Virus record (IMG/VR): IMGVR_UViG_3300020577_014021
Length of the DNA stretch: 64,000 bases
From: a virus
Taxonomy: Duplodnaviria; Caudoviricetes
Reading direction: 5' to 3' (one strand)
Shown: piece after piece, positions 47,888-64,000 of the stretch
Layout of the letters: every line of letters begins with the position of its first letter
Position numbering within the stretch: the stretch's first letter is position 1
Translations under genes and position numbers: made by a program
The notes under the pieces: model-generated
Seen by the model: the letters and a program-made list of their open reading frames with translations, nothing else
Database searches by the model: none
What the model was told of the DNA's origin: nothing

Positions 47888-48667
47888 ATGCCAAAAATAA
47901 CTGATATTACTTCATACTTTATATATTGTTCCCAAAAACAAAATCATTTTTTAAATGTCAATAAACTACAATTTTTTTTGTACTATAGTCAGATGTATCA
48001 CTTAGCTTATAACCAATCCCTGTTATTCAATGAGCCTATTATTACACAGCAAAATGGTGTCATAATAGAACCTGTTTTTTATGACTATTTACAATATCGT
48101 TACAAGTCTATAGACATACAAAAAAACTATCCAACACTCAATCCCAAAACCGAAAAGATTCTTTCTTTGGTTAATAATATATATACACATTTTGATTCAT
48201 TTGAATTAGAAAAGTACATTAAGTCCGAACTCCCTTTTATAGAAGCTTACGCTACTAATAATCCTATTGATGTTAAAAAGTATAAATCCTATTACCGCAC
48301 AAACGCTTTAACTTCACCTGAGAAAGAGCAGTTAAAACAAACTATCCTTAAACATCATGAACATGCTTTGTCATCTTACAATAAAAACCCGCAAGAACTC
48401 TTACCATTATTTAACCTGCTCGATTTCATCGAGCAACTACCATTAAATATCCTCGTGCCTCAATACCATCACGCTGATCATTGGCATAAACCGCATCTTC
48501 ATTTTAATGTGCACCATGATATATTAGATATATACTTTACACTTGATAGAATCTATTACAAAGGATTAATAAGTTTCAAACAAATTAATAACTCGCACAA
48601 ATGGAAAAAGTCCATACCAAAGAAACTTTTAAACTTACTTACCCATTATCCTTTTTCGCAAGATTAA
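47888..48667 (+). CDS. Panacea (SocA/DUF4065) antitoxin-domain protein with C-terminal extension
   Basis: 'KLQ..LYY.Q..HL......LF.E.I....NG.....VF..Y'. Confidence 0.7.
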   Translation: MPKITDITSYFIYCSQKQNHFLNVNKLQFFLYYSQMYHLAYNQSLLFNEPIITQQNGVIIEPVFYDYLQYRYKSIDIQKNYPTLNPKTEKILSLVNNIYTHFDSFELEKYIKSELPFIEAYATNNPIDVKKYKSYYRTNALTSPEKEQLKQTILKHHEHALSSYNKNPQELLPLFNLLDFIEQLPLNILVPQYHHADHWHKPHLHFNVHHDILDIYFTLDRIYYKGLISFKQINNSHKWKKSIPKKLLNLLTHYPFSQD

Positions 48668-50194
48668 AGCCATGCCAATTATATTACCAAAAATAAACTC
48701 GATTGGAAACGAAGCACCAGTGTTATTGCAAGAATGTACAGGAGAATTGTTGCTTGGAGTTGGTTTACTGTCTCCTGTATCTGGCTGCTCAACCTTAATA
48801 CACATCCTGGCTGTAGTATCACAAGTATAACCTGAAAAACACTGTACCTGCGCGCGGCAACCGCCCTGTGTCAATGGAACGCACTTCTGCTGCTCAGCAT
48901 TACAATAAGCATTTAAAGAGCATCCTGAATCATCAGTACACTTAATGTAAGACGGATCGTAATCTTGACACTTATGCTCTAAATTACAAATCTGACCAGT
49001 TTTGCAATCAGTATTAACTGTACATTCTGGTTTTTTTAACTCACATTTGTTTACACTGGTATTGCATACATATTCAGATGTAGACCAAGAATATTTACAA
49101 TCCGAATCTTGAGTGCATTCAGGTGGCCGAGGAACACACTTATTGGTATTTGTATCACACATATTTCCTAGCGTACACGTGCTGTCATTGATGCACTCAG
49201 CACATGCACCTTGTTCTGTGCATACATCCTTTTCATTTGCGCACGGACTACAAGTCGTACCGCACATTTTATTGCTCCGACATACAACTTTTGTATCTTG
49301 ACATAATCCACTTATGCACTGAAAACCTTGATTACAATCTTTAGTTTCATCACACATCTGACATGAAGTGCCATCATATCCATCAATGGTATTGAATAAT
49401 AACCATTTATTCAAAATTGACATTTTATATGGGTTGCCTTTGTCATCCAAATATTTATTATTTTCAAGGTCACTAATATTAATATTGGTATAACCAAAAC
49501 TAAAACCTGCATTGGTAGGGCTACCACTCAATGCACTCAATTCTATTAGAGCATTATCATTATTTTGATAATAAATAATTTCAAAAGGATATAAGCCCTC
49601 ACCTTCAAACTGGACTTGCCGAGTTACTTTATTAAACGGAGATTTATAATCTATATATAAAACAGGCTTACCGGCAATCAAAAGCAGCCCGCCATCATTT
49701 GCATTTAAACCAATAGTTTCAGTGAAGCCTGAAAAAACATTCAAGTATCCTCTAAAGTGAGTGATTACCTTTCTTCCATCAAAAGGTGTTTTTGTATAAT
49801 CCAAATAATCATAACTATCACTAAAATCACCTCTTGATGTTGTGTCAAATAAAAAACTTTGCATGTCCAATGTTCTACGAATACTATAAAGTTCATTGCT
49901 ATTTTTAAAAACATTACCTTTTATAGTAACAGCACCATTTAAACCATTATTTGATAATATGTAGGCATCTAAGGGTGTTTGTAAGTCAACTGAAGAATCA
50001 AATTTATGACTCCTGGAACATAACCCTGAATTGTAGTAATAATAAGGACGCGAAGGAGCTGCTCTTTCCGTTTGTTTAACCACTACTAAATCATTATAAT
50101 TTATGGTTTCTAGTGTCTTTTCATCAAAAGGCAATGGACTTGACATTAAACTTATAGGAAATAATAATACTAAGGCACAAATTATATTTATCAT
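48635..50194 (-). CDS. TraA-like surface protein (signal peptide, PA14-like domain, Cys-rich repeats, MYXO-CTERM-like tail)
   Basis: Start MINIICALVLL with GGAG RBS; 'GLC', 'FRGYLNV', 'GLYPFEIIYYQ...A.IE', 'CGTTCSPC', several C..DSDC-type repeats, 'SC..TG....hydrophobic..LRKR' end. Confidence 0.75.
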   Translation of the reverse strand: MINIICALVLLFPISLMSSPLPFDEKTLETINYNDLVVVKQTERAAPSRPYYYYNSGLCSRSHKFDSSVDLQTPLDAYILSNNGLNGAVTIKGNVFKNSNELYSIRRTLDMQSFLFDTTSRGDFSDSYDYLDYTKTPFDGRKVITHFRGYLNVFSGFTETIGLNANDGGLLLIAGKPVLYIDYKSPFNKVTRQVQFEGEGLYPFEIIYYQNNDNALIELSALSGSPTNAGFSFGYTNINISDLENNKYLDDKGNPYKMSILNKWLLFNTIDGYDGTSCQMCDETKDCNQGFQCISGLCQDTKVVCRSNKMCGTTCSPCANEKDVCTEQGACAECINDSTCTLGNMCDTNTNKCVPRPPECTQDSDCKYSWSTSEYVCNTSVNKCELKKPECTVNTDCKTGQICNLEHKCQDYDPSYIKCTDDSGCSLNAYCNAEQQKCVPLTQGGCRAQVQCFSGYTCDTTARMCIKVEQPDTGDSKPTPSNNSPVHSCNNTGASFPIEFIFGNIIGMALILRKRIMGK

Positions 50195-50361
50195 AAATTT
50201 TCTCCAAGGTAAATTCAGCAAAATTTCATCAATTACGATTTTAATAATCTAAAAAAAAAATATTGTCAAATATTTTACAAAAAAATAAAAATTAGATTTT
50301 ATATGTCTTAAATTGATTATAATACTTTTATTATAAATAACACTTATTTATTGTTTAAATA

Positions 50362-56272: not shown

Positions 56273-57103
56273 TCATAATTCTAACAAATCTCCAATTTCC
56301 CATAAACGATCTGTAATCCCAGCCTCCATAGCAGGGGTCACTCGTAAAGTATAATGTATATTTACAAAATTATAACAGGCAAAATATAAACCAATGGACG
56401 CTTCAAAATTCTCATACTTTTTGCTGAAGCCATTGGTCTTACGCGTTAAACGCCTATTGTTTATGCGCATCGTCAGGTTTTGACGTTCAATCAAAGAAGT
56501 CGAAATGTCTTTCTCAATAGGGTTGCCAATGACAATCGTCTTTTCAACGTTAACTTTTTTATCGTCCTGTTTTTCGACTCCGGCTTCTAAAGCATCAACA
56601 CCTTTTTTCTTCTTGGCATAGGTTTTAACAACTTGCGCATACTCTACTTCTTCGCCAAATCCATTTTCAACAGCTTCAATATATGCAGGAAGCCCGTCAC
56701 TGGAAAGTTGTACTCGGCTCGTTAAACGGCCTACCAAGTCGGCAATAAAAGCGTTAGCATTTTCTCCATCTCGTTTGCCAATTCTATAGCAGGGTACCAG
56801 CTTAGTCTCCGGATCCATGGCCACAAACGTCCAAACACTGCCGACTTTTTCTTCGCCCGGTTTAACGTTTTTCTCTTTTTTCTTAACAAAACCCCAAATC
56901 TCATCGACTTGAATTTTATTGCTTTTGATGTTTTTCATGGTCTTATCGAGCATTTGCTGGCATTTTTGACCAACCTTGACCCCTAATCGCATAATGGTAT
57001 CACGATGAATATGTAGTGTTCCTTCAATAGCGCGAATACTTGCGCCCTTAGCTAATAAATGGATAACTTTGATTTGTTTATCTTTATTTAAAACATAGAC
57101 CAT
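56273..57103 (-). CDS. IS1-family DDE transposase (intact, element B)
   Basis: QVDEIWGF, SSDGLPAY, IERQNLTMR, 'H.TLRVTPAMEAGITD..W'; start set by alignment with the element A copy. Confidence 0.88.
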   Translation of the reverse strand: MVYVLNKDKQIKVIHLLAKGASIRAIEGTLHIHRDTIMRLGVKVGQKCQQMLDKTMKNIKSNKIQVDEIWGFVKKKEKNVKPGEEKVGSVWTFVAMDPETKLVPCYRIGKRDGENANAFIADLVGRLTSRVQLSSDGLPAYIEAVENGFGEEVEYAQVVKTYAKKKKGVDALEAGVEKQDDKKVNVEKTIVIGNPIEKDISTSLIERQNLTMRINNRRLTRKTNGFSKKYENFEASIGLYFACYNFVNIHYTLRVTPAMEAGITDRLWEIGDLLEL

Positions 57104-57203
57104 AATAGTTATTATGATAGATGAACAATTACCTATCATTCTTTTCTTGCTATAATTTTGATGTAATTCTACCGTTTAGTGAAAGAAATATTCACTAATG
57201 GGG

Positions 57204-59995: not shown

Positions 59996-62644
59996 CTATG
60001 AAGACAGAGTGCTTAAATCGCTGACCTTAGAGACTTGTTTATATATAATATCTTTAAAATTCTTAAAATGTTCTTTGCCACATTTGATTTTCATTTTTTC
60101 ACTACTTCTTAACTCTTGATCTTCTCCTTTGGTCTCAGCGACAAAGTATATTTTCCTTTCTCCTTTAAATACTAATGCCCAATCAGGATTATAATTACCT
60201 ATAGGCGTTTCAATTTTAAACCAAAAAGGAAGCTTAAAATAAAATTCAATATTCTCACTGCTTTCACAGTCTTTGGCAAAATTGCTTTCTACTCTTGAAT
60301 CAAGAGGAATGTAATTTTCATAAATGGTTTTTTCCGGCGCATTTATAGTATGCGTAAATTGATCAAGGTATATTTCTAATTCGTTATCCTCAAACAGTTT
60401 CATCTCATATATTTTGTCGCCAATTTTTTCATATTTAATGCCATCAATCATCAATTCGTATAATACTGATTTAATGGCACCCGCAGCATTATCCAAAAAC
60501 AATTGTGGATTCAAAAGCAATTCATTTATTCTGCCTGACTTTTTTAATATTTTTAAAATCGTACTTCTCGTCAATTCCGTTTTATTTTGAATGTACGAAA
60601 GGACATCTGGTACTTCAAACTTAAAATTATAATTGTCATTCCCATTGTTGCTTATTAATTGTCCGTCAATACCTTCATCGGTTATTAACATTTTTTTCTT
60701 TGTTGATTTGATAACGGGCTTTGTTGTCTCTGGCATTTCTCTTAATGACTTAGCCGCAGAAGCAATAAGCTCATCTGTTTTATATTCTACACTATATTGA
60801 GTGTGAAATTTTATCTTGTTCCAAATTTCAAGAAATTTAGGATCAGCTTCAAACCCTTTTCGTAAGTTAACTTTTTTTCTTTTATCTTTGTCTTTTATTC
60901 TGCCTGAAAATTGCACACCGCAATCCTGTTCAATTTCCTGTTGCAGTGTCTTAGCAAAATCTTCATATCGTTCATTGGCAATTACAGTTAGTTTATTTAT
61001 ATTCCGGTCAAAGATTCGCTGACCTGACTGATTTACAGCTAATCGCAAACCTCGGCCAATTTCTTGTCTTTTTTTAATTTCAGATTTGGTTTCATTTAAA
61101 GTACATATTTGGAACACATTGGGATTGTCCCAACCTTCACGCAGGGCTGAATGGCTGAATATGAAACGCAATGGTGTATTTAGATCAAGTAACTTTTCTT
61201 TTTCTTGCATGATAAGTTTATATGTATCATCATCCAATAGCGTTTCACCCCCTGTATCCTTTACTCTACCTTTGTTGTCTTGCGAGAAATAGCCGTTATG
61301 CACTTCTTCTTTGGTGTGAGGATTTAAGCCGCTAAATATGGGCTTTTCTAATTCCTGTTTGTAGATTTCTTCAAACCATTGCGCAAATTTCCCTTTTGTA
61401 GAATTACCATTTGCATCGTATTCTCTGTAATTTTTTACTTTGTCGATAAAAAACAAGGAAAGCACTTTAATGCCTTTTTCTTTATATGCTTTCTCTTTTT
61501 TAAGATGCTCTTCTACAGTTTTACGAATCATGAATTTCATTAATTCATCATTCATTCCGCCTTGTGATTCACCGACCTTAAGGACAATGCCATTAGATAG
61601 TTCTATTTGTTCATTTCCAAAATCAATTTCATATACTTTCAAACCGTCATATTTCGGATGTTGCTCAGATAAAATAAACAAATCTAGATTTTTTTTGTTT
61701 ACCTGTACTGACTTTCGCTTAACTCCCTCTGGTGTATTTACATCAATCTTTATCTTGGCTTTAATGTTGTTTCCAGTTCTGGTTATTGCTTCTAGTTCAA
61801 TAAAAGAAGAATTGAGATTGTTTTCACTGACTACAGAGTCAACTTCTATTTGTTTTACCAATCCTAAATCATAGGCACTAACAGGATTTAATGAATACAT
61901 TAAGTTGTATAGGTTGGTATGGGTTGCAGAATAACGCAAAGTACAAAGCGGATTTAGGTTTTGAATCGCCTTTTTTCGGATATCGGTTTCCATGTTTTGC
62001 GGTTCATCCACAATTACAATAGGATTACAGCTTTGAATAAATTCAATCGGTTTTTTACCTGTTAATTTATCATTTGCCTTGTTGATAACATTTTCATCTT
62101 TAGCAAAAGCATCAATATTGATTACTAAGATTTGTATTGCATTGCTGCCAGAAAATCCCCTAATACTGGAAATTTTTTTACTGTCATATATTTCAAAATT
62201 AATGGCCGTTTTGTCATATAAAGATTGAAAATGCTCGTGCGTAATTTGTAGATTTTTCAATACGCCTTCTCTAATAGCTACAGATGGAACTACGATGACA
62301 AACTTCTTAAATCCATAAAGTTTTTGCAACTCATAAATTGTTCTAAGATATACGTAGGTTTTGCCTGTGCCGGTTTCCATTTCCACCGAAAAATTCATGC
62401 CATGAAATTCATTGTTATCTGTTTTTATTTTATTGTGTTGTTGAATTATTTGTATGTTTGCCCAAATCTGTTCTTCGGACAAAGCAAGCTTATTTCCCAA
62501 ACCATTTTCAGAAAGAAGAGATCCGTATGAAGTCATTGAAAATTCAAAATCACCGCCTTTTAAAGGCTGTCCTTCAAATATATCAGTGATAGATTTTATC
62601 GCTTCTATCTGGTAATCTTGGTTGCTGTCGAAGTGTAGTTTCAT
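59996..62644 (-). CDS. res: Type III restriction endonuclease Res subunit
   Basis: 'EMETGTGKTYVY', 'IVDEPQ', 'LREGWDNPNVFQICTL', 'QEIGRGLRL', 'YNPDWA...AETKG'. Confidence 0.95.
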   Translation of the reverse strand: MKLHFDSNQDYQIEAIKSITDIFEGQPLKGGDFEFSMTSYGSLLSENGLGNKLALSEEQIWANIQIIQQHNKIKTDNNEFHGMNFSVEMETGTGKTYVYLRTIYELQKLYGFKKFVIVVPSVAIREGVLKNLQITHEHFQSLYDKTAINFEIYDSKKISSIRGFSGSNAIQILVINIDAFAKDENVINKANDKLTGKKPIEFIQSCNPIVIVDEPQNMETDIRKKAIQNLNPLCTLRYSATHTNLYNLMYSLNPVSAYDLGLVKQIEVDSVVSENNLNSSFIELEAITRTGNNIKAKIKIDVNTPEGVKRKSVQVNKKNLDLFILSEQHPKYDGLKVYEIDFGNEQIELSNGIVLKVGESQGGMNDELMKFMIRKTVEEHLKKEKAYKEKGIKVLSLFFIDKVKNYREYDANGNSTKGKFAQWFEEIYKQELEKPIFSGLNPHTKEEVHNGYFSQDNKGRVKDTGGETLLDDDTYKLIMQEKEKLLDLNTPLRFIFSHSALREGWDNPNVFQICTLNETKSEIKKRQEIGRGLRLAVNQSGQRIFDRNINKLTVIANERYEDFAKTLQQEIEQDCGVQFSGRIKDKDKRKKVNLRKGFEADPKFLEIWNKIKFHTQYSVEYKTDELIASAAKSLREMPETTKPVIKSTKKKMLITDEGIDGQLISNNGNDNYNFKFEVPDVLSYIQNKTELTRSTILKILKKSGRINELLLNPQLFLDNAAGAIKSVLYELMIDGIKYEKIGDKIYEMKLFEDNELEIYLDQFTHTINAPEKTIYENYIPLDSRVESNFAKDCESSENIEFYFKLPFWFKIETPIGNYNPDWALVFKGERKIYFVAETKGEDQELRSSEKMKIKCGKEHFKNFKDIIYKQVSKVSDLSTLSS

Positions 62645-64000
62645 TTATATTGTTTTAAAATCAATTTCTGCACGTTTCATCTGTAATACTATATTTGTTT
62701 TAAGCTGATCATCACCCGCAAAAAGGTTGTCTAGAATTATTACTTTCCGAGGTTTGGATTCAATAATTTCATTGATAATAGACTGACTTATTTTTTCTAA
62801 ACTAATTATCAGTTCATTATTAACAGAATAAAAATGGTTTTTCTTCTCTACTTTATCTGTCAGTTGATAACCAGCCTTAATCATTAGTTCATAAAGAATG
62901 TTTTTTTCTTGAGCCCCTTTATTCAATGGGTTTGGAAAAGCATCTAATTGTTGCAATAAGTTTTCCTCACTAATTTCATTGCTTTTCCAAATTTTAAAAT
63001 TTGATGAAGAAAGCTTGAATACTTTGAATCCTAAATCAAGGTTATCATTGTTAAATAAATTAGGATTTTCGCCTTTTTCTTTTTTTATCTTATTAATTAC
63101 TTTTCTGATACGATCTTTGCCAATTTCTGCAATCGTTGTGTATCCTGCTTTGAGCGCCTCGCTGCTTTCATCACAAATTTCAGGAAGTTGTACTAAAATG
63201 AATTTTATTTTTTTTGACCCTGTTATTACACCTTGATTATTTAGTTCTAAAACTGCCTGACCTAAAGTTCCTGAACCACTAAAAAAGTCGAGAGCGATAA
63301 ATTCGTCTCCATCGTTCATTGAAAGAAGGTATTTTATAAGAGGGAGAGGTTTAGGATAATCAAAATGTATGTTTTCTTTTTTAAGATTTGCACTTGTAGT
63401 TTGTGTATTCCCAAGGTTAGTTATGACAGAAACAACATGACTTTGGTTTTCTTTTCTCTTTTTAATTATCTCTAAAGAACCTATTTTAGATAAAAGGAAA
63501 GTTGTTTCTTGTCCTTTGCCGTCAAGGATAGGTTTGAAATTATTATTTATAAATTCAAGAGCTAAATCTTTAGAACTCCATCCACTTTCTATAACAGTTT
63601 CGTTAACCAGTTTGAAGTTCTCTACTAAAGCATTATTCAAATAATGAGGCCAAACATTGTCTCGTTTATCAATTATTCCTTTTTCAAAATCAGTAGGAAA
63701 TCCAATTGGTAAAACAATTTCACTAACAGGATTCGCCGGACCATTTTTGACGACTGTATTTTTAATTTGTTCATTGTGTAGTTTACTGTTTGAATTTATA
63801 TTCGGATCTATAACCGGGGGATGAGGAAATAAGTCCAAATTTTTACAATAGGCAAATATATATTCATGACAATTTTTAATTTTTGCTTGATTGTCAAAAT
63901 TTCCATCTGTGCGCCAAATAAAATTAGCTAAAAAATTCTCCTCTCCAAAAATTTCATTCATTATTAACCGGAGGTTATGAACTTCATTGTCATCTATATG
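62645..64000 (-). CDS. mod: Type III R-M methyltransferase Mod (5' end beyond window)
   Basis: 'IDDNEVHNLR..MNEIFGEENF', 'FDYPKP', 'LDFFSGSGT', 'DLGFKVFKL'. Confidence 0.92.
   Translation of the reverse strand, partial: HIDDNEVHNLRLIMNEIFGEENFLANFIWRTDGNFDNQAKIKNCHEYIFAYCKNLDLFPHPPVIDPNINSNSKLHNEQIKNTVVKNGPANPVSEIVLPIGFPTDFEKGIIDKRDNVWPHYLNNALVENFKLVNETVIESGWSSKDLALEFINNNFKPILDGKGQETTFLLSKIGSLEIIKKRKENQSHVVSVITNLGNTQTTSANLKKENIHFDYPKPLPLIKYLLSMNDGDEFIALDFFSGSGTLGQAVLELNNQGVITGSKKIKFILVQLPEICDESSEALKAGYTTIAEIGKDRIRKVINKIKKEKGENPNLFNNDNLDLGFKVFKLSSSNFKIWKSNEISEENLLQQLDAFPNPLNKGAQEKNILYELMIKAGYQLTDKVEKKNHFYSVNNELIISLEKISQSIINEIIESKPRKVIILDNLFAGDDQLKTNIVLQMKRAEIDFKTI

Follow-up and report, generated by a model that had tools for sequence, protein, structure and literature searches.

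What is a relative of the kin-recognition receptor TraA doing in a phage genome? TraA and TraB form the best-understood bacterial system of self-recognition and membrane exchange, and they have been described solely as a chromosomal two-gene locus of Myxococcota. We addressed this question for a 64,000-nucleotide stretch (hereafter the window) of the IMG/VR virus record IMGVR_UViG_3300020577_014021, in which the open reading frame P0001 (48635–50194, minus strand, ATG start) encodes 519 amino acids followed by a stop codon. Comparisons of sequence provide solid support for P0001 as a true homologue of the TraA superfamily over both the head and the shaft, and they identify it as a divergent, shortened member that lies outside the canonical TraA clade. 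The gene is a conserved accessory gene in an uncultured clade of myoviruses related to Myxococcus phage Mx1. We consider it probable, at roughly 0.6, that its product, a short TraA relative without TraB, serves as an exported orphan surface adhesin or decoy.

The NCBIfam model of TraA (NF033759, exchanger_TraA) matches residues 53–467 of P0001 with 40.6 bits (E = 1.3e-10) and matches all eight members of the phage family (P0001–P0008). The cut-off of this model is 750 bits, which the family misses by far; the best of the eight members reaches 67.9 bits and the genuine TraA P0063 reaches 1096 bits. The model of the TraA N-terminal region, TIGR04566, aligns with P0001 at profile positions 18–196 of 240 (29.6 bits, cut-off 80; E = 5e-7), and it matches seven of the eight members with a best E-value of 1e-11. 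In the stored Pfam annotation, PF27866 (Myxo_TraA_N) is listed for P0001 and P0004–P0008, is faint in P0003, and is not listed for P0002; our local Pfam scan left PF27866 unmatched. When the phage family was aligned with genuine TraA by hhalign, the match had a probability of 99.9% (E = 7.7e-34, 418 aligned columns). Since query columns 9–466 pair with template columns 20–550 of 672, the match covers the head and the shaft, while about 100 TraA columns inside the shaft and the last ~120 columns have no phage counterpart. The TraA cluster also ranked first in the feature search of the ESM Atlas (cosine 0.96) and in a shape search. The motifs that a preliminary description of this DNA had listed as TraA motifs are present in the translation, and G.GLC, RGYLNV, GLYP.E..Y.Q, and CG..C..C align with those of genuine TraA in an alignment of 52 sequences. 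Against 1.84 billion representative sequences, the family profile retrieved short TraA-like proteins and TraA-TraB fusions (E-values of 1e-34 to 1e-20) as well as genuine TraA (about 1e-10). Generic PA14 proteins cover only profile positions ~110–181, the head core.

The same data set P0001 apart from TraA proper. In a tree of the head domain, the 16 canonical TraA sequences group in one clade, to the exclusion of the phage proteins, with a support of 100 in the Shimodaira–Hasegawa-like approximate likelihood ratio test (SH-aLRT). The phage proteins branch separately, as a clade on a long stem (SH-aLRT 98), within an unresolved group of fusions and short TraA-like proteins; this tree is a quick search, and its phage rows are deviant in composition. 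The core motif YYQN is common to the phage family and the short/fusion group, where canonical TraA has YAQ or YAE. Together with the missed curated cut-offs and the differences described below, this topology shows that P0001 is not a TraA orthologue. The best cellular relatives are only 25–28% identical, and on this ground we rejected the idea that the phage had lately acquired a known cellular traA.

The shaft and the pattern of variation differ as well. TraA has more than 70 Cys residues and a shaft that turns back into a second head, which has been modelled atop the TraB barrel (PMC12045341). We defined a long shaft by more than 70 Cys residues, at least eight hairpins, and the TraB-docking second head of this AlphaFold model (PMC12045341). 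P0001 falls outside this definition, with 34 Cys residues (80 in P0063), six hairpins, a shaft of about half the length of that of TraA, and no counterpart to the distal TraB-docking part. Polymorphism in TraA is concentrated in the head (PMC6372800), and the phage head had been described as a variable domain. In a set of 11 full-length variants that share at least 90% identity with P0004, the head varies at 30 of 219 positions and the stalk at 44 of 189, so that the head-focused polymorphism was not found among these close variants and the changes are denser in the stalk. At the deeper level of the family, residues 60–145 are the least conserved structured part, with a mean identity of 29% versus 45–48% elsewhere.

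No traB lies beside the gene, as had been noted previously. Searches by tblastn with four TraB-type queries through the window and the related phage loci gave nothing better than E = 0.2. In a whole 135 kb IMG/VR relative, estimated to be 84% complete, the TraB model finds nothing and no myxosortase core was detected, and the TraA-like gene is present as a single copy. By comparison, traB was found for all 90 published traA loci (PMC6372800). The nearest cellular relatives include short TraA-like proteins of about 450 aa, and the two whose contigs were examined have no adjacent traB gene. Cells therefore have an orphan class as well, and the phage protein belongs with it.

The AlphaFold2 model of P0001 was built from the 52-sequence alignment and has a mean predicted local distance difference test (pLDDT) score of 88. 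All features described here are on the minus strand. Residues 1–19 (50138–50194) form a hydrophobic leader, a putative Sec signal peptide, which is modelled with low pLDDT as a helix at residues 2–10; all eight family members have the same type of leader. Residues ~30–275 (49370–50107) constitute the predicted TraA N-terminal/PA14-type adhesin head, an assignment drawn from TIGR04566, PF27866, the AlphaFold2 model, Foldseek, and the motifs. The head is modelled as a β-sandwich with pLDDT of about 97, holds the GLC, RGYLNV, and GLYP.E..YYQN motifs, and contains Cys59, which is nearly invariant across the wider family. Residues 278–467 (48794–49363) form the Cys-rich stalk of six predicted β-hairpins, which holds most of the Cys residues and is matched by TIGR04201 (Myxo_Cys_RPT) at E = 1e-3, under its cut-off. 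A poorly conserved spacer follows at residues 468–488 (48731–48793), with a mean pairwise identity of 14% and pLDDT below 50 at residues 472–495. The C-terminal tail (residues 489–519, 48638–48730) consists of a Cys-Asn pair, a hydrophobic helix (residues 498–518 in the model), and basic residues, as seen in the alignment and the model. Cys489 is kept in all eight relatives, and Cys489 and Asn490 are both invariant in the first four. By inspection, this Cys/helix/basic layout is tripartite and resembles MYXO-CTERM. The four parts of the architecture attributed to the gene earlier (leader, head, stalk, and tail layout) are thus all present; of the profile checks proposed with it, those for the N-terminal domain and the Cys-rich repeat gave matches below the cut-offs and that for MYXO-CTERM gave none.

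Five further genomes of related phages, assembled from different samples, encode homologues of P0001 with 39–46% identity, making six genomes in total. In the window and three relatives, the gene is housed in an early-type region with HU-like, dUTPase, and thymidylate kinase genes. In the two other relatives, it lies beside and convergent to a gene for a 655-aa tail-fibre-like protein. The proteins of these two relatives form a clade (SH-aLRT 99), which together with the different locus fits a single relocation. One related phage carries a tandem pair of TraA-like genes (L001:4965–6341, 458 aa, and L001:6420–7982, 520 aa), the shorter product of which, P0008, is about 35% identical to P0001. 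Since the gene recurs in independent assemblies from different samples, we regard it as a stable feature of the clade and not an accident of assembly. A tblastn search of P0001 against 50,697 phage records gave no match, and the Mx1 genome has no match to the phage-family profile. A scan of species-representative genomes gave just two weak matches to the PA14 core, in a Deltaproteobacteria metagenome-assembled genome (MAG) and an Eisenbacteria MAG, and did not find the close family with the patterns used.

These features suggest how an orphan adhesin or decoy could act. The TraA-like protein would be made in the infected cell and, as its leader suggests, exported through Sec. The signal peptide, the C-terminal membrane helix, and the 34 Cys residues, which need an oxidising compartment, argue that it is not a virion part assembled in the cytoplasm. 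Export alone accommodates a leader, a C-terminal membrane helix, and a disulfide-rich stalk. The C-terminal helix may hold the protein during folding. TraA reaches the surface by way of sorting through MrtX and type II secretion (PMC11980579), and by analogy, a Cys-tag sorting route of the host, with a myxosortase-like protease and type II secretion, could move the phage protein to the cell surface. Since the fully searched phage relative has no sorting enzyme, the host would have to supply it. At the surface, the model would present a PA14-type adhesin head on a stiff stalk of six hairpins, about half as long as TraA, and the orphan adhesin or decoy would alter the adhesion or recognition of the infected cell. 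Since P0001 lacks the distal part of the shaft, which in the TraA model rests on TraB, the binding of a surface ligand is likelier than membrane fusion by P0001 itself. A candidate ligand is the head of a host TraA-like protein or another envelope component. Plausible pay-offs, at which we arrive by inference only, are that contact with susceptible neighbours is kept or that contact-dependent exchange or superinfection is blocked. Phages of the Mx1 type are virulent, and their latent period of 120–150 min (PMC6070905) would be long enough for a surface protein to take effect while infection proceeds.

Several observations weigh against this interpretation. The search for traB on the contig that bears P0001 covered 64 kb of ~148 kb, the other ~84 kb lying outside the window. 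The signal peptide was judged by eye alone. The MYXO-CTERM model TIGR03901 matches none of the eight family members at E-values up to 10; this model is short and lineage-sensitive (10.1101/2023.06.07.544157). The Asp-Asp calcium/sugar site of PA14 lectins varies in the phage family (ND, DD, ST, and DT), so that protein and glycan are equally likely as ligands. Between the same genomes, the TraA-like gene has 39–44% identity while structural genes have about 50–78%; this divergence resembles that of other accessory genes, and its faster pace fits an arms race or relaxed constraint alike. Finally, a matching sorting enzyme, and likewise TraAB, can only be presumed in the host of the phage.

Among the other explanations, the one that survives best, though unlikely, is superinfection exclusion or receptor masking, in which the protein would bind or mask the receptor used by the phage itself, which may be a TraA-like protein of the host. 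A predicted exported surface protein that is conserved across a phage clade and diverges fast relative to structural genes would suit this role, as would the position among early-type genes in four genomes and beside a tail-fibre-like cluster in two others. The phages T5 and phi80 encode envelope proteins, Llp and Cor respectively, that block their own receptors, and we count these precedents in its favour. However, the exclusion proteins described so far are either small lipoproteins or proteins of the inner membrane, among which a stalked adhesin of 519 aa would be unusual, and no receptor is known for these phages.

Next in rank, with a small chance, comes a working TraA that pairs with a TraB of the host and gives the infected cell a new kin specificity or triggers outer-membrane exchange with neighbours. 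This is the reading of the preliminary description, whose proposals that the phage may reprogram the social identity of the host, recruit neighbouring cells, or jam exchange are speculative. The true homology over head and shaft speaks for it, and the diverged tandem copies in one phage recall dual specificity. A further argument is that low-GC cells can carry such systems. L010, a 115 kb cellular contig with 40% GC from a similar metagenome series, has a traA-like gene followed by a traB-like gene (L010:608–4543). The TraA-like product has 748 aa with a Cys/transmembrane/basic tail, and the TraB-like product has 536 aa and scores 347 bits on the TraB model. The leucyl-tRNA synthetase of L010 shares no more than 51% identity with any other sequence; most of its named matches come from Myxococcota or 'Deltaproteobacteria' MAGs, and Geobacter reaches a similar level. 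In a search of 401 genomes from the phylum to which the MAG G002 belongs, no sequence exceeded 38–39% full-length identity to the TraB of L010; the sample includes one unpublished genome, G199, on which no claim is based. By its sequence, L010 seems to represent a deep lineage, low in GC, that has a traAB-type operon, indicating that low-GC organisms with TraAB-type systems exist. Its TraA-like protein is 24–29% identical to the phage protein, with the likeness mainly in the Cys-rich part, and no link was found between the L010 organism and the phage. Several findings set out above stand against a working TraA: the position outside the canonical clade and the score of 40.6 bits against a cut-off of 750, the half-length shaft with no counterpart to the distal TraB-docking head, the lack of traB in the window and the 135 kb relative when all published traA loci have one, and the denser variation in the stalk, which is the opposite of TraA.

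A related proposal, to which we give a shade less credence still, is that P0001 is a remodelled kin-recognition receptor by which the infected cell engages the TraA-type receptors of its kin, either tethering susceptible cells or opening outer-membrane exchange, or else acting as a dominant-negative decoy. An opened exchange could spread the phage receptor or phage-made envelope proteins, and a decoy would cut the infected cell off from the exchange of toxins and repair. If this proposal were true, the phage would be the first virus with a homologue of a bacterial self-recognition receptor that steers multicellular behaviour.

It is improbable that P0001 is a generic PA14 lectin adhesin for a glycan on prey, matrix, or particles, with a likeness to TraA that reflects shared domains only. 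In searches of solved structures with Foldseek, the best matches of the head are indeed the sugar-binding PA14 adhesin domains of Epa6A, Epa1A, MpPA14, and Flo5 (E of about 1e-7). Pfam PA14 (PF07691) matches five of the eight family members at E-values up to 0.01 (best 6.8e-7; P0001 scores 18.7 bits, with a gathering score of 24 bits), and GLEYA matches two of the eight. However, the match with TraA exceeds the PA14 core to which generic proteins are confined, as it includes an N-terminal extension with the near-invariant G.GLC and the Cys pattern after the head, and the Asp-Asp site is variable. Very improbable are a virion component for receptor binding or decoration, suggested by the tail-fibre-like cluster beside the gene in two relatives and rejected on the export signals and Cys content and because the gene is convergent to the tail genes there and not co-oriented with them, and a host–phage assembly artefact, against which the gene and its neighbourhood recur in independent assemblies and the GC content of the gene (34%) is inside the range of the phage.

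The window is phage DNA, in agreement with the earlier view of the gene as phage-borne. Its large open reading frames match PHROG families of tail sheath, baseplate hub, tail fibre, and structural proteins, and the contig belongs to a myovirus with a length of ~148 kb and a GC content of 33.7%. The closest cultured relative is Mx1, whose tail sheath shares 40% identity along its whole length and whose baseplate protein is about 32–36% identical to its counterpart. In total, 18 open reading frames of the window match Mx1 at 25–40% identity, largely in a syntenic structural block; since one of them is an antisense frame inside the baseplate J-like gene, about 17 genes of the window have Mx1 homologues.

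A Myxococcota-related host, as suggested in the preliminary description, is plausible from these sequences, because the kinship with Mx1, the TraA-family gene, and the Cys-tag tail point in this direction. Cys-tag tails have so far been tied to Myxococcota, including Bradymonadales (10.1101/2023.06.07.544157). The nearest cellular relatives of the phage family look like proteins of high-GC Myxococcota with MYXO-CTERM tails. The GC content is 33.7% in the window versus 55.5% in Mx1, and the genome of M. xanthus has about 69%. Since the GC content of Mx1 is far below that of its host, a phage with 33.7% GC could infect a host with a somewhat higher GC content.

The P0001 gene is preceded by an AT-rich spacer of 167 nt (50195–50361, minus strand). 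The spacer contains GGAG at 50202–50205, 8 nt 5′ of the ATG, and promoter-like hexamers including TTGACA at 50264–50269. An alternative in-frame TTG at 50221, used by one public gene call, would add nine residues (528 aa); we prefer the ATG because the starts of seven relatives align there. The spacer is possibly the gene's own promoter, judging by its sequence. Around the gene, 12 promoter-like sites were found against 12.0 expected in shuffled sequence, which is no excess, and terminator-like sites were likewise no commoner than in shuffled sequence. Nearby genes encode a sigma factor, dUTPase, thymidylate kinase, and an HU-like protein. At the 3′ end, 33 nt of the P0001 gene are shared with a convergent open reading frame of 259 aa (47888–48667, plus strand), whose product weakly matches the SocA/Panacea antitoxin domain with a score under the threshold (E = 8e-4).

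Some features elsewhere in these genomes were also recorded. Two diverged IS1-family transposase genes lie within the phage (53253–54047, plus strand, and 56273–57139, minus strand). Copies of the second at 85–87% identity are confined to contigs of 7–92 kb, the two longest of which are related phage contigs, and the next tier of relatives comes from diverse bacterial phyla at no more than 64% identity; from these comparisons, the copies look like a phage-resident IS lineage. Positions 1–2000, which span the C-terminal part of a 590-aa structural protein matching phrog_697, have 47% GC versus ~33% elsewhere in the window. At 59996–63961 (minus strand), a gene for an 882-aa helicase/restriction-type protein (ResIII, RE_endonuc) adjoins one for a 438-aa DNA methyltransferase, and the pair looks like a type III-like restriction-modification system carried by the phage. 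In a related phage, the gene for the DNA polymerase III α subunit (L007:200–3955) contains an intein according to stored Pfam matches, and Mx1 likewise encodes this subunit.

How does the phage protein compare with known systems? The PA14/GLEYA adhesins, such as Epa1 and Epa6 of Candida, Flo1 and Flo5 of yeast, and MpIBP of Marinomonas, have the same head fold in stalked tip domains. They are only 9–15% identical to the P0001 head, have neither a Cys-rich shaft nor a Cys-tag tail, and bind sugar via calcium on an Asp-Asp pair that is not conserved in the phage family. The phage morons Lom and Bor of lambda and Llp of T5 are dispensable for the virion and reach the host envelope by export, where they alter adhesion or exclude other phages. 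Unrelated to the phage TraA-like protein in sequence and fold, they are also much smaller, and to our knowledge none of them derives from a family of kin-recognition receptors.

Closer relatives are the short TraA-like proteins (~385–480 aa) and the TraA-TraB fusions (~1000 aa), P0009–P0020, which are the best non-phage matches to the family profile (E-values of 1e-34 to 1e-25). The short proteins have a Myxo_TraA_N head and MYXO-CTERM-type tails, come from high-GC metagenome contigs of Myxococcota type, and share the short architecture of P0001. Proteins of both kinds are cellular and high-GC, and they are 25–28% identical to the phage family. The single-protein fusions (P0011, P0018, P0020, P0026, P0031, P0042, P0043, P0046, and P0049) combine the head and shaft of a TraA-like protein with a TraB-like barrel and an OmpA domain, and in the 401-genome phylum sample, TraB-like C-terminal parts also occur inside open frames of 2000–2900 aa.

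TraA itself (NF033759, with the PF27866 head), from M. xanthus and other Myxococcota, has the same order of parts as P0001 and shares the motifs G.GLC, RGYLNV, GLYP.E, and CG..C..C. It has ~700 aa and 80 Cys residues, compared with 519 aa and 34 Cys residues in P0001, which differs further in its half shaft, in the lack of a detected traB partner and of a match to the MYXO-CTERM model, and in being carried by a phage at ~34% GC. Links between phages and TraAB appear in the literature as prophage-borne SitA toxins and as the probable swap of traAB alleles by transduction; in the literature on TraA/TraB exchange, we found no published description of a phage-encoded TraA-family protein. What is new here is a conserved, fast-diverging, TraB-less relative of TraA across a clade of Mx1-like phages. 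It also provides a clue to hosts, suggesting that Mx1-type phages and Cys-tagged TraA-family proteins extend to low-GC uncultured organisms. P0001 is a testable candidate for the viral manipulation of cell–cell contact in social or gliding bacteria. It may also be seen as a natural 'minimal TraA' of head, half shaft, and anchor, which would help to tell the parts of TraA that serve recognition from those that serve fusion.

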